A stretch of 64,000 nucleotides of DNA from a virus (lineage: Duplodnaviria > Caudoviricetes). Position 1 is the stretch's first letter, and the number at the start of each line of letters is the position of its first letter. A program made the translations under genes and the position numbers. Location of the stretch: IMG/VR virus record IMGVR_UViG_3300023178_000006; one strand, written 5' to 3'. Positions 22,087 to 48,834 of the stretch are shown in pieces. The notes under the pieces were generated by a model. It saw nothing but the letters and a program-made list of their open reading frames with translations, ran no database searches and was not told the DNA's origin.

Positions 22087-22163
22087 TGGCCTCCTCTGAG
22101 AGATTCGAACTCCCGGCCTTGTGGTTCGTAGCCACACGCTCTATCCAACTGAGCTAAGAGGAG
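22087..22163 (-). tRNA. tRNA-Arg(ACG)
   Basis: CTCCTCT/AGAGGAG acceptor, TGTGG-CTACGAA-CCACA anticodon arm, TTCGA, CCA. Confidence 0.93.
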
Positions 22164-22175
22164 ATGTAAAGTGTT

Positions 22176-22204
22176 ATTATAACACATTTATTTTAATTTG
22201 TCAA
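22176..22204 (-). promoter_or_regulatory. Sigma70-type promoter for tRNA-Arg(ACG)
   Basis: TTGACA-17-TATAAT just upstream of the tRNA 5' end. Confidence 0.8.
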
Positions 22205-22489
22205 CCCTAGCAATGATTGCCAAAAGTTAATCCAAAATGCACCATGGTCTTTCATAATACCCATAGCTAAAAATGAGAATCCAACACCATTCAAAAGAAT
22301 AAGTGCTCGGTCTTCCCATAAAATCGAAACCCACATCCATAGTCCAATACCAAAAAAACTAAAATATAAATCTAATAAATGGTAATCTGGACCAGATGAA
22401 CGAAAAATAATTGCTGATAATACGAGAGCTGATGCTATCCACTTAACATACCAATCTAATTTCTTTTCTCCACGCTCACTACGTATCAT
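22193..22489 (-). CDS. Three-TM membrane protein
   Basis: WYVKWIASALVL, three hydrophobic segments. Confidence 0.65.
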   Translation of the reverse strand: MIRSERGEKKLDWYVKWIASALVLSAIIFRSSGPDYHLLDLYFSFFGIGLWMWVSILWEDRALILLNGVGFSFLAMGIMKDHGAFWINFWQSLLGLTN

Positions 22490-22668
22490 TAACTTAATGT
22501 TTCCTTGTTCGTAATATTCGTAGTTGGGATATCTACAATGTATCCATCGATTCTACGAACATAGGTAGTATCACCCTCTACCTTTTCTTCGATACCTACA
22601 ACTTCTAATGTGACACCCTCTTTAACTGGGTGGTTGTAGGTGTATTTTATTCTTCCTTCTGTACTCAT
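22489..22668 (-). CDS. Hypothetical protein (59 aa)
   Basis: Manual translation MSTEGRIKYTYNHPV...; translationally coupled to neighbours. Confidence 0.5.
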   Translation of the reverse strand: MSTEGRIKYTYNHPVKEGVTLEVVGIEEKVEGDTTYVRRIDGYIVDIPTTNITNKETLS

Positions 22669-22832
22669 ACATTACACCTCTTTTTGAGTATTTCTAATTC
22701 TTTATCTTTTCTTGCTTGCCACTTTTCTTGAGTACGTTCATGACCGGCTGCATTTGTTTTAGGGAAAAATTTTGATTCCTTTAAACGCTCGTAAGCACCT
22801 AATCTTCTAGCTTCAACATTTCTTTTCTTCAT
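22665..22832 (-). CDS. Basic hypothetical protein (55 aa)
   Basis: Manual translation MKKRNVEARRLGAYERLK...; GGAGA RBS. Confidence 0.5.
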   Translation of the reverse strand: MKKRNVEARRLGAYERLKESKFFPKTNAAGHERTQEKWQARKDKELEILKKRCNV

Positions 22833-23565
22833 TTCCAATCTCCCATTTATATTTGGATATCACTTTTAGATGTTCCCAAGTTTCTTCATAATTTTCTACT
22901 TGATGGACTTCACCCATTTTACCGAGTTCAATTACTAAAGCTATTGAGTAATCGTTTCCACCATGCATTGTTCTATCACCAAAAAAGACTAACCTTTCGT
23001 ATTCTTCTTTTAAATCATAAGCAGCTTGAGACTTGTCAGCCTTTTTAGGAGATATATCTATACTTATCTCTCCACCTGCTGTTGCATGTAAATCTGTAAA
23101 CTTTCTATTTATGTCATCGCACAAATTTTTTCTTTCGAGATAATTCTTATCCCATTCAAAGTATTTTTTACGTTGTTCTTGAGTTGCAGCTCTACCGACA
23201 GTAGAAAAATTAATCATACCTGTGCGAACTTCGATATGGTTATTTGTCTTAGGTTGATATGGACTATGATGTAGTCTATTCTTGAGGTAGTGTGTGAGTT
23301 CATACGATGGCTTCCAAGGGTTTGTTTTTACTCGCCTATTTTTATACCATAACTCATTTCCGTTACATTGGTATACACCTAGCATTTGGTCGTATATCTC
23401 GAAACCAATTTGTTCGATTGTTTTTGGTCTATCACTTCCACTTACTAAATAGCAATCATTGTTTTTAGTAAAGTCTAAAAACCAATCGTGAAATTCTGGT
23501 TCGATTGTTCCGCGTGCTGGCGTGAGCGTACCATCTACATCAAATACAAAAGCTTCTTTCTTCAT
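22813..23565 (-). CDS. HAD-superfamily phosphomannomutase (eukaryote-type PMM family)
   Basis: FVFDVDGTLT, VSGSD, IEVRTGMINFS.VGR, GGEISIDI, FFGD....GGNDY. Confidence 0.88.
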   Translation of the reverse strand: MKKEAFVFDVDGTLTPARGTIEPEFHDWFLDFTKNNDCYLVSGSDRPKTIEQIGFEIYDQMLGVYQCNGNELWYKNRRVKTNPWKPSYELTHYLKNRLHHSPYQPKTNNHIEVRTGMINFSTVGRAATQEQRKKYFEWDKNYLERKNLCDDINRKFTDLHATAGGEISIDISPKKADKSQAAYDLKEEYERLVFFGDRTMHGGNDYSIALVIELGKMGEVHQVENYEETWEHLKVISKYKWEIGNEEKKC

Positions 23566-23693
23566 AGTACGTCATTTCGATATAAAACAAGTAATATCAC
23601 AATCACCGGAATCATCGCCATTAAAAAATCCGACATAGTTAAACTTCCTTTATCTTCAATTGGTACGTCTTCGTATCTTTCTTCTTTCTTCAT
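23562..23693 (-). CDS. Small single-TM protein (43 aa)
   Basis: Manual translation MKKEERYEDVPIEDKGSLTMSDFLMAMIPVIVILLVLYRNDVL; AGGA RBS. Confidence 0.45.
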   Translation of the reverse strand: MKKEERYEDVPIEDKGSLTMSDFLMAMIPVIVILLVLYRNDVL

Positions 23694-23703
23694 AATATCC
23701 TAA

Positions 23704-23779
23704 TGGTGGAGCTGACAGGGGTCGAACCTGCGACCTCCTCCGTGCAAGGGAGGCGCTCTCCCAACTGAGCTACAGCCCC
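23704..23779 (-). tRNA. tRNA-Ala(TGC)
   Basis: GGGGCTG acceptor with G3:U70, CCTCC-CTTGCAC-GGAGG, CCA. Confidence 0.96.
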
Positions 23780-23786
23780 ACGTGTT

Positions 23787-23862
23787 TGGTGCCGGATGTC
23801 GGGTTCGAACTGACGACCTACTGATTACAAATCAGTTGCTCTACCAACTGAGCTAATCCGGC
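23787..23862 (-). tRNA. tRNA-Thr(TGT)
   Basis: GCCGGAT acceptor, ACTGA-TTTGTAA-TCAGT, TTCGA, CCA. Confidence 0.96.
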
Positions 23863-24041
23863 AAACTTTCTAATTCTTTTTCTACTAAACTCTTAACCTT
23901 ATCTAAGCTGTACCACAATCCTGAGTACATAGTTGTTCTTCCATTAGGGCAATTTTCCCATTGAACAACGTATCTCTTATAACCATAAGGTCTTTCTGAA
24001 AATATTCTTACGTCTCCGTAATTAGTTTCCAATAGTCTCAT
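23853..24041 (-). CDS. Hypothetical protein (stop codon lies inside tRNA-Thr)
   Basis: 62-aa ORF coupled to the upstream ORF. Confidence 0.55.
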   Translation of the reverse strand: MRLLETNYGDVRIFSERPYGYKRYVVQWENCPNGRTTMYSGLWYSLDKVKSLVEKELESLPD

Positions 24042-24219
24042 TTAATTTACCTAACTCTGATTGAAGTTCGTGAATCCTTTTATAGGCTTCATACTTTTGT
24101 GTGTTTTCTTCTTCAACCATTTTCTTGTAGAGTTTAACATCGGCTCTAAGTTTATTTAGTTCTTTTTCTTGAACTTTAAGTTTTTCTCTATAAACTTCAA
24201 TTGTAAAGTCTTTATCCAT
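24022..24219 (-). CDS. Coiled-coil hypothetical protein
   Basis: GAGGA RBS; heptad pattern. Confidence 0.6.
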   Translation of the reverse strand: MDKDFTIEVYREKLKVQEKELNKLRADVKLYKKMVEEENTQKYEAYKRIHELQSELGKLNETIGN

Positions 24220-24349
24220 CTTCCTCTCTTATAGGATGTTTAGTATAACCGCGTTTAGCAGCCTTTTTTCTGTCTGTCATTACGACGGCTTTGTTATATT
24301 TATGACCGTATTTCGCTACTGGATTTTTCCTCTTCTCTACTTTCTTCAT
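24212..24349 (-). CDS. Small basic conserved phage protein (45 aa)
   Basis: Manual translation RKNPVAKYGHKYNKAVVMTDRKKAAKRGYTKH, a pattern recalled from T4-like phages. Confidence 0.6.
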   Translation of the reverse strand: MKKVEKRKNPVAKYGHKYNKAVVMTDRKKAAKRGYTKHPIREEDG

Positions 24350-24430
24350 TTCTCTCTAAGACCTCTTCGCAATGTGGACACTTTAAATCTATACCAAGTA
24401 GTTCACTTATTGCTTTATGCTTTTTCCACT

Positions 24431-24580
24431 CTATATCCATTTACCCGTCACGAAAGAATCAATTATCTGTATACAAGTGTACTGAACAAATAAAGCCGTC
24501 GCTATCCCAAGTGCGGGATAGATTACGTTTGCTTTCCAAGGATTCTTATTAATCCATTTTTCTAAATCTTTATCATTCAT
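24431..24580 (-). CDS. Small membrane protein (49 aa)
   Basis: Manual translation MNDKDLEKWINKNPWKANVIYPALGIATALF... Confidence 0.45.
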   Translation of the reverse strand: MNDKDLEKWINKNPWKANVIYPALGIATALFVQYTCIQIIDSFVTGKWI

Positions 24581-24597
24581 AACTTTGTATTTATCAT

Positions 24598-24674
24598 TGG
24601 TCGGAGTAATAGGATTCGAACCTATGACCCTCTGCTCCCAAAGCAGATGCGCTACCAGGCTGCGCTATACTCCG
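24598..24674 (-). tRNA. tRNA-Pro(TGG)
   Basis: CGGAGTA acceptor, TCTGC-TTTGGGA-GCAGA, CCA. Confidence 0.96.
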
Positions 24675-24678
24675 TATT

Positions 24679-24765
24679 TGGTGCCTCGAGTCGGAATCGA
24701 ACCGACAAGACCGTAAGGTCGAGGGATTTTAAGTCCCTTGTGTTTACCTATTTCACCACCGAGGC
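24679..24765 (-). tRNA. tRNA-Leu(TAA)
   Basis: 87 nt with long variable arm, AGGGA-CTTAAAA-TCCCT, CCA. Confidence 0.95.
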
Positions 24766-24771
24766 TTTATT

Positions 24772-24848
24772 TGGCGCGCCCTCCAGGACTCGAACCTGGG
24801 ACCCACAGCTTAGAAGGCTGTTGTTCTATCCAACTGAACTAAGGGCGC
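24772..24848 (-). tRNA. tRNA-Arg(TCT)
   Basis: GCGCCCT acceptor, ACAGC-CTTCTAA-GCTGT, CCA. Confidence 0.96.
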
Positions 24849-41086: not shown

Positions 41087-43633
41087 ATGACAATGACTTC
41101 ATTTTACACTTCCGTAGAACGCTACGGTAAGAATATTTTATGGCGAGGATATGAGAACGGTAAACGTTTCTCGTATCGTGTTCCATTTAAACCCACACTA
41201 TATCTTCATACACCAAAGAAAGGTGGTGACTTCAAGTCGTTGATTGGTGGTAAAAGTCTACATCCTCAAAAGTTTGGTGAAATGCGTGAAGCTAAAAACT
41301 TTATTGAAGAGTATAAAGGTGTCGCTGGTTTCGAAGTATTTGGTTCAACAAACTTCGTTACACAATTCATTCAAGAACATTACCCAGAAGAAGTAAGATT
41401 TAATATTGCTGATGTGAACATCGTATCTTTCGATATTGAGGTTGACATTCGTGATGGATTCGCAGATATTGAACAAGCAAATAATGAAATTACTTCTATC
41501 GCATATAAATCATCAAAGTCTAAAAAGTACTTCCTACTTGGTCGTAAAGATTATGATAAAACAAAAACGATAACTGGTATTGACCCAGATAATATCGTAT
41601 TCGCAAAATTCGATACTGAAGCTCAATTGCTCCAAGGATTTATTAAACTATGGACTGCTGACTATCCAGATATTGTAACCGGTTGGAACGTAGAATACTT
41701 TGATATACAATACATCGTAACACGTATTATAAGACTACTTGGTGAAGAATCCGCAAAGAAACTTTCTCCTTGGAAATCGATTGACCAAAAACGTAGAGAG
41801 GTATTCGGTAAAGTTCAAGCAACATACAAAATTTCTGGTATGTCTGTTATTGACTATATGGATGCGTTTAAAAAGTTTGGTTATAAGTATGGTCCACAAG
41901 AATCATATAAACTTGACCACATCGCTCATGTTATTCTTGGTGAAAAGAAACTTGATTATTCTGAATACGGTTCATTGACTGCTTTATATGACGAAAACCC
42001 ACAACTCTATCTCGACTATAACTTAAAAGATACACACCTCATTCAAAGAATGGAAGAAGAAACATCTCTTCTCGCGTTGGTAATGACTGTTGCTTATGGT
42101 GGTGGTGTAAACTATAATGATGCATTTGGTACTGTGGGTATTTGGGAATCTACAATTTATCGTAGACTCATTGCTGACAAAGTTGTTCCTCCAGTTAAAG
42201 ATTCGCCTGGTCAACGTATGGGTGAACTCGTTGGTGGTTACGTAAAAGACCCAAAACCAGGAATGTATCCTTGGGTTGTATCATTTGACTTAAACTCTCT
42301 GTATCCTCATTTAATGTTGCAATACAATATGTCACCTGAAACATATCTTCCTAATGAACGTGAAGTTGTAACACAAGACATGGTACTCAATAGTGAGTTT
42401 AAAAATACGAATACAAATATGTCGGTTGCTGCAAATGGTGTTTGTTTTAGAAACGATGAAGTTGGTATTATTCCAAGTATCATTGACGAATACTATAATA
42501 ATCGTTCTGTGATTAAGAAACAAATGATTGCAGTTGAACAACAATTCGAAGTTGAAACTGACCCTGTTGAAAAGAAAAGACTGAAACGAGAAATGAATCA
42601 ACTTCATAATTCTCAAATGTCAATCAAAATTGCTATGAACTCTCTTTATGGTGCGACAGCAAATATCTACTTCTTATACTATATTAACGAAATGGCTGAA
42701 GCAATCACTACATCTGGTCAGTTAAGTATTCGATATGCTCAAAAATCTGTAAATGATTATCTCAACAAGATACTCAACACGAAAGATAAAGATTATATCG
42801 TATACATTGATACTGATTCAATTTACGTAAACTTTGGTCCATTCATCAAAGAAGTATTCGGTACAGTAGACATTGACCGTAAGCAAGGTGAAGAATTCTT
42901 AGATAAAGTATGTTCTACTAAAATCGAACAAATCATCGAACAAGGATATGAAAAACTTGCAAATGACATGGGTGCATATCGAAACGCGATGGTTATGAAA
43001 CGTGAAAAGATTACTGACCGTTCAATCTTTATCGCAAAGAAAAGATATATCCTTAATGCTTTGAATAGTGAAGGTGTTCACTATGAAGAACCAAAAGTTT
43101 CTGTTACTGGTTTAGAATCAGTTCGCTCATCGACACCTGAAATATGTCGTGAAAAGATGAAACAAATCTTTAAGGTTATCTTGTCTGGTGATGAAACAGA
43201 AACACAACAATTTATTGCGAAGTTCCGTGATGAATTTCGTAGCTTACCTCCCGAAGATATTGCTAAAACTTCGGGCACAGACAATATCAATAAATACATG
43301 AGTAAGGAAACTCTATATAGAAAAGGATGTCCAATGCATGTTCGTGGTTGTATTCTCTACAATCACTTCCTTACACAGAAAAAACTCGATAAGAAATACG
43401 AAAAGGTTCAATCAGGTGACAAGATAAAATTCATTTATCTTAAAGTGCCTAATCCTATTCGTGAAAATATGATATCGTTCCCCGGTGTACTTCCTAAAGA
43501 ATTAGGACTCGACAAGTATATTGATTATGATACTCAATTCGATAAAGTGTTCTTAGGACCAGTCGAAAACATTATTGAACCTCTGGGTTGGAAATCCGAA
43601 AAAGTAAATACAATTGAGGACTTTTTTACATGA
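41087..43633 (+). CDS. gp43: Family B DNA polymerase (T4 gp43)
   Basis: FDIE exo I, GWNVEYFD, SFDLNSLYPH, KIAMNSLYG, YIDTDS, KKRY; no intein. Confidence 0.97.
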   Translation: MTMTSFYTSVERYGKNILWRGYENGKRFSYRVPFKPTLYLHTPKKGGDFKSLIGGKSLHPQKFGEMREAKNFIEEYKGVAGFEVFGSTNFVTQFIQEHYPEEVRFNIADVNIVSFDIEVDIRDGFADIEQANNEITSIAYKSSKSKKYFLLGRKDYDKTKTITGIDPDNIVFAKFDTEAQLLQGFIKLWTADYPDIVTGWNVEYFDIQYIVTRIIRLLGEESAKKLSPWKSIDQKRREVFGKVQATYKISGMSVIDYMDAFKKFGYKYGPQESYKLDHIAHVILGEKKLDYSEYGSLTALYDENPQLYLDYNLKDTHLIQRMEEETSLLALVMTVAYGGGVNYNDAFGTVGIWESTIYRRLIADKVVPPVKDSPGQRMGELVGGYVKDPKPGMYPWVVSFDLNSLYPHLMLQYNMSPETYLPNEREVVTQDMVLNSEFKNTNTNMSVAANGVCFRNDEVGIIPSIIDEYYNNRSVIKKQMIAVEQQFEVETDPVEKKRLKREMNQLHNSQMSIKIAMNSLYGATANIYFLYYINEMAEAITTSGQLSIRYAQKSVNDYLNKILNTKDKDYIVYIDTDSIYVNFGPFIKEVFGTVDIDRKQGEEFLDKVCSTKIEQIIEQGYEKLANDMGAYRNAMVMKREKITDRSIFIAKKRYILNALNSEGVHYEEPKVSVTGLESVRSSTPEICREKMKQIFKVILSGDETETQQFIAKFRDEFRSLPPEDIAKTSGTDNINKYMSKETLYRKGCPMHVRGCILYNHFLTQKKLDKKYEKVQSGDKIKFIYLKVPNPIRENMISFPGVLPKELGLDKYIDYDTQFDKVFLGPVENIIEPLGWKSEKVNTIEDFFT

Positions 43634-45683: not shown

Positions 45684-45904
45684 AAGAGCCAATCGTAAAC
45701 GCTCTAGTAGCGAAATATAAAGCTCAAATTGCAGAGCATAAAGTAAATATTGATGTATTGTTAGAAAAACAAGTGGGTGTCGCAGAACATCCTGGTATTA
45801 TCGAAACAATCGATTTAGAAGTTACAAAACTTGCTGAAGCTGAAGATAAACTTTACATCGTTGAAAACAATTTCGTTATTAAACCACAACCAAGACTTCC
45901 GTAA
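45680..45904 (+). CDS. Conserved T4-like hypothetical protein
   Basis: L..KY..QI..H..NI.V.L...VGVAEHP...E.ID. Confidence 0.65.
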   Translation: MKEPIVNALVAKYKAQIAEHKVNIDVLLEKQVGVAEHPGIIETIDLEVTKLAEAEDKLYIVENNFVIKPQPRLP

Positions 45905-45931: not shown

Positions 45932-45960
45932 TTGACATTTACGAAAAACTATAGTATAAT
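45932..45960 (+). promoter_or_regulatory. Sigma70-type promoter with UP element; predicted TSS ~45967
   Basis: GCACTTTTTTCACAAAAACAG-TTGACA-17-TATAAT. Confidence 0.85.
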
Positions 45961-45966
45961 ATACTA

Positions 45967-46205
45967 GATTGTTGGGAATAGGCTATGACGGCGAGACGAA
46001 AGTTTAGGACCCACGACGGTAACGAACCAACAATCACCTTGGTAGAGGGAATACTGCTCCTAATATGGAACCCCTGAAACACCAACAGATATACCAAGCG
46101 ACGAAAGTTTCGAGGTATATCAACCGAGTGAAAGTAAGGAACACCAAAACGGACAACCTCTGCCGAGACCTATATGTGACCTAGTTGATGGTCATTGAAC
46201 TAACT
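45967..46205 (+). ncRNA. Candidate multi-stem structured RNA / 5' leader
   Basis: Stems 45967-75/46027-35 (9 bp perfect), 46038-48/46157-67 (11 bp, 2 GU), 46088-95/46114-21 (8 bp), 46177-81/46190-94; several GAAA/GUAA loops; GACGAAAGTTT twice. Confidence 0.6.
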
Positions 46206-46228
46206 TATAAATCGGAGTAGAAACGATT

Positions 46229-47572
46229 ATGGAATATAACGTAAAAGTAATGTCTGCGCAAGAGATTGTAGACCTTCTTAATACGGGAAAATTAAATCCC
46301 GACCCAATTGGCCAGAGACCTCCCGTCTCTTCCGGCGTAAAAAAATCAATCGCAATTATCAAAGGACTCATGTCCGGTTATGGTGCTGGAATGTTAACCA
46401 TTCGAGACATTCGCAATGATGTCGAAGCACAAAAGATTTATGGTTGTGATTATCTTGTAATTGATGGCGGACACCGCTGTCGAGCTCTTAAAGCTTACTA
46501 TACTGGAAAGATTCTCATCGATGGTGAGAAATACATTGATTCAGATTTTAATCTGAGTGATGTCGATATACCAGTTGACGTAAGAGTATGTACTTCTTCT
46601 GAAGCTTCACGTCTATTTAGAAATATCAACACGACAACACCAACCAACTTTATGGAAATGGTAATGTCTGATGAAGAATCTAAAGTGTGTGAGTATATAC
46701 GTAGAAAAACTTCGTATGTACGCGAGTATTCTAATGAACCACATCCGTTGTTCGAAAAACAAATTAAACCTGATGGTAAAGTTGTTGTGCCAAACTGGGT
46801 TGATGACCAACCCAACCCAAGACGTAGATGGGACGAGTTTGTTGCTATCGCAATAATCCGTTCTATGGGTAAAGGTTTAGTTGATGCTGGTCAAACAGAA
46901 ATCGAAACACTATGTCGTGAAGATAATGAGATTCCTAAAACTGTACAATCAAGAGTAGACGATTTCTTAGACGCTGCTTTAAAATTACGTGTATTCCGTA
47001 AGTTTGGTTTAAATGACGCAATCTTCTCGGCTTTTTCTGTGTATTACTTTGGATTGGTTGAACAATTCGATAAGTTTAAAATTGATAATGATGAGGACTT
47101 CTTTAAGTTCTTTATGAAAACTTATACACTACTTACTGGCAAAAATGATACGTCTCTCGAAAAAGAAACGATTGAATACAATGATACCACCTTCTTTGTT
47201 AAGGAATTTGTCAGAAAGTATCGAAGACACTCAGCTGCAGGTAATGCACAGAAACTTGTATATAAACAGTTTACAATTCACGGAAACTGTGATATAATAC
47301 CAGATGGAATTACAGTTTTAGATACGAAACGTTCTCTAGGTAAACTCGATAGAGAAGAAGCATTAGCAGCACAAGGTTATGTTTGTGCAATTGATGGAAA
47401 ACCTTTAGAACTTGACGATGCCGTATTTGGACATGATACTCCTTGGTCACAAGGTGGTAAGAGTGTAATTGAGAATGGTGCGATGGTAAGAAGCGAACAT
47501 AACAGAAACATGGGAACTCTTACTCTCGATGAATATAAAATGATTTTAACTATGAGGGAAACTAATGCCTAA
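46229..47572 (+). CDS. DUF262 (ParB-like) + C-terminal HNH nuclease, GmrSD-like
   Basis: GQRP and VIDGGHR (DGQQR variant) at the N-terminus; CAID...FGHDTPWSQGG...NGAMVRSEHN at the C-terminus. Confidence 0.75.
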   Translation: MEYNVKVMSAQEIVDLLNTGKLNPDPIGQRPPVSSGVKKSIAIIKGLMSGYGAGMLTIRDIRNDVEAQKIYGCDYLVIDGGHRCRALKAYYTGKILIDGEKYIDSDFNLSDVDIPVDVRVCTSSEASRLFRNINTTTPTNFMEMVMSDEESKVCEYIRRKTSYVREYSNEPHPLFEKQIKPDGKVVVPNWVDDQPNPRRRWDEFVAIAIIRSMGKGLVDAGQTEIETLCREDNEIPKTVQSRVDDFLDAALKLRVFRKFGLNDAIFSAFSVYYFGLVEQFDKFKIDNDEDFFKFFMKTYTLLTGKNDTSLEKETIEYNDTTFFVKEFVRKYRRHSAAGNAQKLVYKQFTIHGNCDIIPDGITVLDTKRSLGKLDREEALAAQGYVCAIDGKPLELDDAVFGHDTPWSQGGKSVIENGAMVRSEHNRNMGTLTLDEYKMILTMRETNA

Positions 47573-47909
47573 AAATAATAACCCCGAAGCGGTCAACGTT
47601 CTTCAAGAATGTATCGACCTTCAGTTGAAAAAATCTAGGGATTATCAGAATCCTAATTCAACTGTACAACAAGCACAATACTATCCTAATGGTATTGTAA
47701 CTATTCACGATATCATGCATGCAAAAATGCTACGTATGAAATCGGTTATGGAAGCTATGCAAAGTGATGATTATAATCCAAACTTCGAATCTCTTGAAGA
47801 TTCAGCAAAAGATTTAATTAACTATGCGAGTTTCTTTGTTTCATTTTGTCGTGGTAAAATACCAGGCCAAGATTCCCGCAATGATGCATTTAATAAGAGG
47901 ACTAAATAA
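47565..47909 (+). CDS. DUF1599-like nucleotide-modification-associated protein
   Basis: LQECIDLQLKKSRDY...KMLR...SLEDS..DLINYA. Confidence 0.6.
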   Translation: MPKNNNPEAVNVLQECIDLQLKKSRDYQNPNSTVQQAQYYPNGIVTIHDIMHAKMLRMKSVMEAMQSDDYNPNFESLEDSAKDLINYASFFVSFCRGKIPGQDSRNDAFNKRTK

Positions 47910-48163
47910 TGAGTAATGTGATTATACCTTCAAGTGATGAAGATAAGAAAAGAATTAAAGGTGCTATGGAAGAAATGAGTAATTCATTTACTAGAGTAGA
48001 AGCCGAACGTGATTTTCAAAAAGAAGCAATTAATGCCTTAGCTGACGATGTAGATATTCCTAAAAATATTCTACGTAAAATGGCTAGGATTTATCATAAA
48101 CAAAATCTACCAGCAGTTGTAGCTGAACTAGATGATATTGAAACACTATTGGAAACAATTTAA
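47909..48163 (+). CDS. dsbA: dsDNA-binding protein (T4 DsbA-like)
   Basis: E.SNS..R..AERDF..E...ILRKMARIYHKQN. Confidence 0.75.
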   Translation: MSNVIIPSSDEDKKRIKGAMEEMSNSFTRVEAERDFQKEAINALADDVDIPKNILRKMARIYHKQNLPAVVAELDDIETLLETI

Positions 48164-48834
48164 TGTTAAGAGTTAGAGATATTCGTAATCAAATCGTAAC
48201 TGATTTTCTTCAAGGTGATTGGGTTATTGATAGAACAGGTGCTAAGACTGTTGAAGTCATTGGTGCCACATTTATTGCTGATGAAGATTATGTTATTCGT
48301 AAACCAGCTTATGAATACATCAAACGTGAATTGCGTTGGTATGAAATGCAATCACTGTATGTTGATGACATCCCTGGTGAAACTCCACAAATTTGGAAAG
48401 ACATCTCATCTGAAGAAGGTAAGATTAATTCAAACTATGGTTGGTGTATCTATTCTGATGAGAATGGTAATCAATACCAAAAAGTAAAACAAGAATTAAA
48501 GTCTAATCCAAACTCAAGACGTGCGACAATGATTTATAATCGACCAAGCATGCATACTGATTTTAACAAAAATGGTATGAACGATTTTATGTGTACTTAT
48601 GCTAATACGTTCTATATCAGAAATAATAGATTAGTTTCGCATTATATTATGCGTTCAAACGATGCAGTCTTTGGTTATAATAATGATTATGCTTGGGCAA
48701 AACACGTTCAAGAAAGACTTGCAAATGACTTAGGTGTTGAAGTTGGTGAATTAATTTGGACCGCTTCTAACTTTCACGTATACGAAAGACACTTTAATTT
48801 TATACAGGAATATATTGATGGCAATAAAGGTTGA
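48163..48834 (+). CDS. gp42: dCMP hydroxymethylase (T4 gp42)
   Basis: DRTGAKTVEVIGATF, YIKRELRWY, DIPGETPQIW, INSNYGW, RPSM, DFMCT, MRSND..FG..NDYAW (Asp specifying dCMP). Confidence 0.93.
   Translation: MLRVRDIRNQIVTDFLQGDWVIDRTGAKTVEVIGATFIADEDYVIRKPAYEYIKRELRWYEMQSLYVDDIPGETPQIWKDISSEEGKINSNYGWCIYSDENGNQYQKVKQELKSNPNSRRATMIYNRPSMHTDFNKNGMNDFMCTYANTFYIRNNRLVSHYIMRSNDAVFGYNNDYAWAKHVQERLANDLGVEVGELIWTASNFHVYERHFNFIQEYIDGNKG

Follow-up and report, generated by a model that had tools for sequence, protein, structure and literature searches.

A conserved structured RNA in the leader of a putative nuclease gene of an uncultured T4-like phage, very probably a member of a new RNA family that is not specific to that gene

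Phage structured RNAs that combine large size with strong conservation are few, and most of those known, once studied, proved to be riboswitches, ribozymes or components of ribonucleoproteins. Here we report an analysis of such an RNA in the 262-nt leader (45967-46228, no open reading frame) directly upstream of a putative nuclease gene in a 64,000-nt stretch of viral DNA (IMG/VR record IMGVR_UViG_3300023178_000006; Caudoviricetes), referred to below as the window. Among the systems closest to it, riboswitch aptamers share the 5′ leader position, a closing helix (P1) around a multi-helix core, near-invariant junctions and variable GNRA-capped arms; unlike them, the leader matches no known class, the genes downstream of the RNA have no common pathway, there is one copy per genome and no expression platform is evident in the window. 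The put RNA of phage HK022 is a cis-acting antitermination RNA of ∼70 nt with two stem-loops, which modifies the polymerase. It too is encoded by a phage and lies shortly behind early promoters, and the action of the RNA described here would likewise be independent of the genes that follow, but no sequence or structural likeness was established. The omega RNA of IscB (HEARO) is, like the leader, a large structured RNA directly 5′ of an HNH-containing nuclease gene. In contrast, the leader has no Rfam match to it at E values up to 10, the window protein has a ParB-like N-terminal domain and no RuvC or IscB architecture, and the RNA family to which the leader belongs occurs without the nuclease and before other genes.

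Two published surveys are also relevant. A catalogue of 8,495 unnamed candidate structured RNAs of 29-151 nt from IMG/VR (Fremin et al. 2023; PMC10690425) shares with this study the use of uncultured viral contigs as source and of covariation as evidence, and differs in that its text makes no mention of S21, of HNH or of elements close to promoters. Non-coding RNAs that have been rearranged in nature, with conserved parts joined in a different order or topology, are the subject of PMC10085705; conserved parts of the present RNA are likewise connected differently in some members, but in the window one closed domain is split into two tandem closed domains with the order unpermuted.

Nearly all of the physical features that a preliminary description had read from the letters of the leader were borne out. 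The proposed 262-nt non-coding gap is present, with no open reading frame longer than 52 aa between the stop of the upstream frame at 45904 and the start of a 447-aa frame at 46229. The proposed -10 box is part of a full consensus promoter, and the first stem begins 7 nt after it, at the predicted transcription start (Table 1). An 11-bp stem does enclose an 8-bp stem, and there are exactly two copies of the 11-mer GACGAAAGTTT, one at 45995 and one at 46100, each capping a helix with a GAAA loop, in keeping with the GNRA-capped hairpins that had been described. The leader folds with a minimum free energy of -66.8 kcal/mol, against -52.6 ± 4.3 for dinucleotide shuffles (z = -3.3), and is more stable than all of the 200 shuffled controls (0/200 equal it).

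The leader is very probably a member of a new RNA family and not specific to the nuclease. A 17-nt word from its middle domain led to contig L126, where a consensus promoter is followed by a 195-nt RNA, the gene of a 138-aa protein and a DNA ligase gene; the L126 RNA has blocks in common with both domains of the window leader, and a 25-nt stretch of the window arm P6 is identical in it. A two-block pattern from domain 1 matched 28 viral contigs. The family now comprises 30 distinct full-length members of 130-200 nt from uncultured marine and estuarine phage contigs. In the window the RNA has a G+C content of 44-48%, compared with 35.6% for the window as a whole. The architecture of the family is a closing helix P1 that holds two modules. 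Module 1 has two helices with a symmetric AYGAC/CAYGAC loop between them, and then a variable arm (P2) capped by a GNRA loop; module 2 is made up of helices P4 and P5 and a 2-bp helix, its junctions conserved, plus an arm (P6) that is optional and likewise GNRA-capped. Both arms differ in length between members or are missing from some, and most often they end in a GNRA cap; the junctions are near-invariant.

Alignment of 25 distinct sequences with MAFFT and folding with RNAalifold, before any model fitting, recovered helices Pa, Pb, P2, P4, the 2-bp helix and P5, with compensatory changes. From these helices, with the closing helix P1 added, a covariance model (R1) was built, together with a model of module 2 (R2), both without the window. 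When the 30 full-length members were aligned to R1, standard pairs were found in 98.7% of cells and changes on both sides in 19 of 31 pairs; the covariation score was 0.392, a value that none of 500 shuffles reached (0.126 ± 0.010) and that fell to 0.083 or less when partners were slid by 1-3 columns. These pair counts come from alignments fitted to the model and hence biased towards it; the inner helices, however, had been found earlier without fitting. Within P4, one pair occurs as GC, CG, UA and AU and another as UA, CG, AU and UG. Conserved G-U pairs (for example in 26/30 and 24/30 members) fix the strand as that of the promoter. The family is non-coding, since arm lengths do not differ by multiples of three and, in some members, ACG or GAG stands in place of the module 1 AUG; nor are the small open reading frames inside the leader conserved.

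Both models recognise the window leader. R1 aligns end to end with 45964-46044, with module 2 skipped (43 bits, E = 1.1e-11), and R2 matches 46053-46157 over its full length (69.8 bits, E = 1.1e-15). The two window domains are therefore two different halves of one family RNA, and the window is a split variant that has all family elements: its P1 closes after module 1, and module 2 has an 11-bp helix of its own, whereas a single P1 surrounds both modules in all 30 other full-length members. The GAAUA junction after the closing helix is kept in both window domains, and domain 2 is bordered by a 4-nt direct repeat, ACCT. A near-identical variant of the leader in a seawater RNA run (X20) has 46088-46127 replaced by six letters, TACTGC. 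The replacement removes exactly the P6 arm and so matches the short form without P6 that is seen in half of the family; the two-domain arrangement thus exists in at least two variants. The split form amounts to a natural dissection of the RNA into two modules, and the leaders that carry module 1 alone, described below, are a second one.

Table 1. Promoter, leader elements and nuclease gene, with positions numbered from the first letter of the window
Feature	Position	Strand	Details
Sigma-70-type early promoter	45932..45960	+	-35 TTGACA 45932-37; 17-nt spacer; -10 TATAAT 45955-60; 12/12 consensus
Domain 1: closing helix P1 around module 1	45967..46035	+	P1 = 45967-75 / 46027-35
Module 1 parts	domain 1	+	Junction GAAUA; Pa 45983-84/46018-19; symmetric loop AUGAC / CACGAC; Pb 45990-92/46008,46010-11
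Helix P2 (module 1)	45994-97/46002-05	+	GAAA cap
Domain 2: own closing helix P1b around module 2	46038..46167	+	P1b = 46038-48 / 46157-67; 11 bp, two G-U pairs
Module 2 helices	domain 2	+	P4 46058-60/46151-53; P5 46080-83/46126,46128-30
Optional arm P6 (module 2)	46088-95/46114-21	+	8-bp stem; tip 46098-102/46107-11, GAAA cap
Leader hairpin common to nuclease-gene relatives	46176..46195	+	Stem 46176-81 / 46190-95, 8-nt loop; in 8/8 close leaders
Shine-Dalgarno hairpin	46210..46228	+	GGAG (46214-17) in 9-nt loop; 4-5 bp stem; 3′ arm abuts start codon
447-aa ParB-like (DGGHR) and HNH-like protein	46229..47572	+	First gene of transcription unit; stop overlaps next start at 47565

Several other structural candidates were set aside. 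A look-alike of a GAAA receptor, CCUAA-UAUGG at 46059-68, is confined to one strand and could not fold into the receptor; a CGG-loop-CYG hairpin drawn by eye after module 1 clashes with the better-supported Pa and fails in locus L149; and an 11-bp alternative pairing between the P1 5′ arm and the P5 3′ strand is lost in members with other P1 sequences and was taken as chance. The H-type pseudoknot proposed earlier between TAGTT (46182-86) and AACTA (46198-202) can be drawn in the window but is not kept in seven related leaders, with only two of its five pairs present in L066.

The family occurs in three gene contexts. In the window, L066 and L103 it precedes the nuclease gene. In a second context, represented by loci of the L126-L177 type, it lies between the gene of a phage homologue of ribosomal protein S21 (L162:1018-1302, and in the same place in the other loci; Pfam E = 5.9e-14) and the gene of the 138-aa protein. 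In the third, found by a module 2 pattern, a promoter like that of the window stands behind an epimerase gene, and the RNA is followed by the gene of a 69-aa membrane protein. Among loci fetched by the 138-aa protein, the RNA is present whenever that protein is at least 66% identical, whereas more distant homologues have a short plain leader. In the window and most members the RNA begins within ∼10 nt downstream of an early sigma-70-type promoter and is sense to the next open reading frame; the exceptions are L127, L174 and L177, the last two of which have no promoter between the S21 gene and the RNA. Exactly one copy was found in each of five records of 23-156 kb (11-73% complete). The RNA is conserved, single-copy per phage record, promoter-proximal, co-transcribed and independent of the gene that follows it. 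It is so far confined to uncultured phages of salt marsh, estuary and sea, and it moves between early transcription units.

The leader stretch is present in six metatranscriptome runs. In three salt-marsh RNA runs, contigs (which resolve neither exact ends nor a discrete small RNA) start at 45898 or 45921 and continue through the leader into the open reading frame, with a word depth of 7-19 downstream of the promoter against 0-4 for the upstream gene. This step indicates transcription from the promoter, with the leader and the nuclease gene on one RNA. The promoter is one of 21 exact matches to TTGACA-N16-18-TANAAT in the window, where 0.41 would be expected by chance; the other 20 are followed mostly by leaders of ∼23-50 nt, none with a comparable structure.

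The preliminary description could place the leader in no known class, and covariance searches did not do so either. With the 4,227 models of Rfam 15 at gathering thresholds, the whole window gave only six tRNAs, elsewhere in the window; with E values up to 10, the leader gave two chance-level matches and its relative L126 one. There was no Rfam match to abiF RNA, known riboswitches, self-cleaving ribozymes, group I or II introns, tmRNA, RNase P, 6S or signal recognition particle (SRP) RNA, and the abiF and HEARO models that had been invoked as precedents both missed the leader. Searches of GenBank phages by blastn and tblastn with the leader, the nuclease and one family RNA found no match, and distant GenBank phage relatives of the 138-aa protein were found only in Methylophilales phage Melnitz and Delftia phage PhiW-14. 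A narrow pattern scan of 185,579 prokaryote genomes returned 67 matches, all in high-G+C organisms, which we attribute to chance as none passes R1; patterns from the 5′ end of domain 2 likewise gave chance matches only. A literature search on conserved words of the RNA returned only unrelated primers and no description of the family in the literature searched. We rate the family as new on the basis of no Rfam family, no GenBank phage match, no literature description and no cellular copy in the narrow pattern scan; it may already be among the 8,495 unnamed candidates of PMC10690425. What the preliminary description had called a large structured RNA is, on this evidence, genuinely structured, conserved and covarying; it belongs to no Rfam family, and a single transcript that begins at a promoter carries both it and the nuclease gene.

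The leaders of the nuclease gene itself provide a separate line of comparison. There are 235 homologues of the nuclease, and in some 90 loci that were read nearly every leader has a site resembling a promoter, one or two hairpins and a Shine-Dalgarno sequence. Leaders of the clade with 74-78% identity have four parts, namely a P1 hairpin where the transcript starts, a spacer rich in U, a second hairpin and, last, a small one whose loop contains GGAG. The interior of P1 is a 5-8 nt loop in L100, L016 and L098, ∼40 nt in the L012 group and L103, and ∼50 nt in L066 and the window; close relatives (74-76% identity) have only a plain hairpin where the window carries modules. The extra 130-nt domain at 46038-46167, between P1 and the spacer, is found only in the window among the nuclease leaders, and apart from the window R1 finds the RNA in only two of 85 nuclease loci (L066 and L103), with module 1 alone. 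Since the contents of P1 vary and domain 2 is confined to the window, the large RNA is not a general property of the nuclease gene. P1 and the second hairpin show compensatory changes, and most nuclease homologues have simple hairpins only. In the second hairpin (46176-46195) these changes fall at 46178/46193 (G-C, U-A, A-U) and 46179/46192 (A-U, G-C). The Shine-Dalgarno hairpin is invariant among close relatives, and in distant homologues its stem shows in-register changes, read by eye (AUCG/CGAU, UUAG/CUAA, UACG/CGUA, UAAG/CUUA); it could tune translation efficiency or mark a nuclease cleavage site.

We propose that host RNA polymerase would start ∼7 nt after the -10 box, with the first nucleotides of the transcript forming the 5′ arm of P1, and that the 262-nt stretch would be the 5′ untranslated leader of an early mRNA and one copy of the new family. 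The two modules would be closed separately as tandem domains, and the following hairpin and the Shine-Dalgarno hairpin would be the nuclease gene's own leader. The RNA would be a functional unit in its own right, produced as infection begins, and it may act in cis, as a leader that binds a factor or ligand and controls the early unit at the level of read-through, stability or translation. This proposal in full, cis action included, is our tentative preference and is held with reserve. Precise conservation, single copy and early expression argue for a specific function, and cis action is favoured by the RNA being always sense and 20-60 nt before an open reading frame and by P1 with its U-rich tail being terminator-like in some relatives. 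Several observations weigh against cis action: the downstream genes are unrelated and there is one copy per genome; the RNA of L127 precedes the promoter of the next gene, and those of L174 and L177 are not preceded by a promoter. The U-rich tract after P1 in relatives may only mirror genomes of 35% G+C. Three points (unrelated genes, one copy per record in places that differ between lineages, and the L127 arrangement) speak for an autonomous early non-coding RNA, a folded domain that is released or persists and acts in trans, for example by scaffolding a ribonucleoprotein or by serving as decoy or sponge to a factor of the host or a protein of its defence, its place in a leader being a way of being made first. 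The highly conserved loops and junctions, with peripheral arms that are optional and GNRA-capped, are also in keeping with such an RNA. Yet the window has no clear terminator for it, its position is constantly sense and shortly before an open reading frame, the metatranscriptome contigs, which could not resolve a discrete species, give no sign of one, and there is no likeness to a known host RNA family in Rfam and no bacterial copy in the narrow pattern scan. We regard trans action as possible but doubtful and, judging from sequence, lean slightly towards cis action, itself only a tentative choice. These RNAs could represent a new class of single-copy, complex RNAs that is restricted to large marine myophages and arises from their earliest transcripts. 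The class would have an autonomous biochemical role (sensing of a ligand, ribozyme activity, or action as a decoy towards host factors or defences) and modules independent enough, in folding and in action, to tolerate the split seen in the window, a suggestion that we likewise put forward with some hesitation.

A specific form of cis action would be a promoter-proximal attenuator or anti-terminator, in which P1 and the U-rich tract stop most transcripts unless a factor or ligand intervenes, or the RNA modifies the polymerase in the manner of put RNA. The location directly behind early promoters fits, the plain P1 hairpin and tail of L016 satisfy terminator-like criteria, and members beside the 138-aa gene have a run of 5-6 U within 2-4 nt of P1; in the third context, however, 8-10 nt separate P1 from the U run, spacers rich in U would arise anyway at 35% G+C, and in the window domain 2 separates P1 from the U-rich tract, with no intrinsic terminator (a G+C-rich hairpin with a direct U run) or terminator-like site found in the leader. 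We consider this form unlikely. Improbable, in our judgement, is that the leader is a plain 5′ stem-loop stabiliser with accreted neutral or selfish insertions and no specific function. It is true that what the nuclease leaders have in common is a P1 hairpin at the 5′ end of the transcript, that modules are gained and lost between close relatives and that the ACCT repeat flanks domain 2, but the RNA is single-copy rather than dispersed, and unpaired nucleotides that are near-invariant in 30 members from three contexts, together with compensatory changes in the helices, indicate selection on a precise fold. The preliminary description had named a cis-regulator, which is possible, and, by analogy with IscB omega RNA and abiF RNA, an RNA that serves the neighbouring nuclease as guide scaffold, antitoxin or other partner. 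This second suggestion agrees with the adjacency and co-transcription seen in the window and with the structured leader that is always present in the nuclease clade with 74-100% identity, yet the same RNA precedes two unrelated genes, the two R1 matches among the 85 nuclease loci lack module 2, and L100, L016 and L098 have a short loop in place of the modules. The RNA also occurs in records of up to 156 kb without the nuclease: no homologue was found in the five RNA-bearing records, which at 11-73% completeness leave its absence unproven. The distribution across relatives and the lack of a nuclease-associated Rfam match (HEARO or abiF) make a guide, antitoxin or scaffold role very unlikely indeed. 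A position next to a nuclease gene is weak evidence that an RNA is the partner of that nuclease, and here the distribution across relatives overturned that reading.

The label DUF262-HNH given earlier to the protein is roughly right, the models pointing to a putative nuclease with a ParB/DUF262-like N-terminal domain and an HNH-like C-terminal domain. The first element of the label is suggested by fold rather than by Pfam, where the window protein has no DUF262 match even at E = 10 and PF03235 (GmrSD_N) gives weak matches in 12 of 25 homologues (best 1e-5). The DGGHR motif is invariant among nuclease homologues, H402 and D403 are conserved and H424 and N425 near-invariant, and the PADLOC model REase_II matches the C-terminus (residues 368-424, E = 1.1e-5). 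With an AlphaFold2 (AF2) model of mean predicted local distance difference test (pLDDT) 86.7, Foldseek found a ParB N-domain (probability 0.98, E = 0.012), BrxU and SspE weakly, and Cas9 HNH domains with probabilities of 0.95-0.97 but E values above 0.2; a profile search of PDB sequences with the nuclease family found nothing.

The source is an uncultured T4-like phage, marine or estuarine. The DNA polymerase encoded upstream of the leader (41087-43633) is of the T4 gp43 type with at most 45% identity to that of any GenBank phage, the sequencing runs that contain window DNA are for the most part from salt marsh, and the 7% completeness rating of an identical 12-kb IMG/VR fragment implies a genome of ∼170 kb. 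The window contains neither the S21 gene nor the 138-aa gene. Downstream (47565-48834), the nuclease gene overlaps the next open reading frame by 8 nt; after the nuclease gene come genes for a DsbA-like transcription factor and a 223-aa protein of the thymidylate synthase family, and relatives have a dCMP deaminase in addition. In nine loci of higher G+C (L028, L029, L032-L035, L038, L042 and L045) the ribosome-binding site of the nuclease homologue is closely preceded by a pair of nearly identical hairpins, GTCTC-CATTGT-GAGAC and GTCAC-CATTGT-GTGAC; these CATTGT hairpins may serve as an operator or form an RNA element separate from the new family. The six tRNA genes are clustered at 22090-24848 on the minus strand, one of them directly behind a consensus early promoter (22204-22176). 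Also on the minus strand, at 15643-15519, there are two consensus early promoters with a distance of 96 nt between them; immediately after the first come a terminator-like 9-bp hairpin with a U run and then the second promoter.

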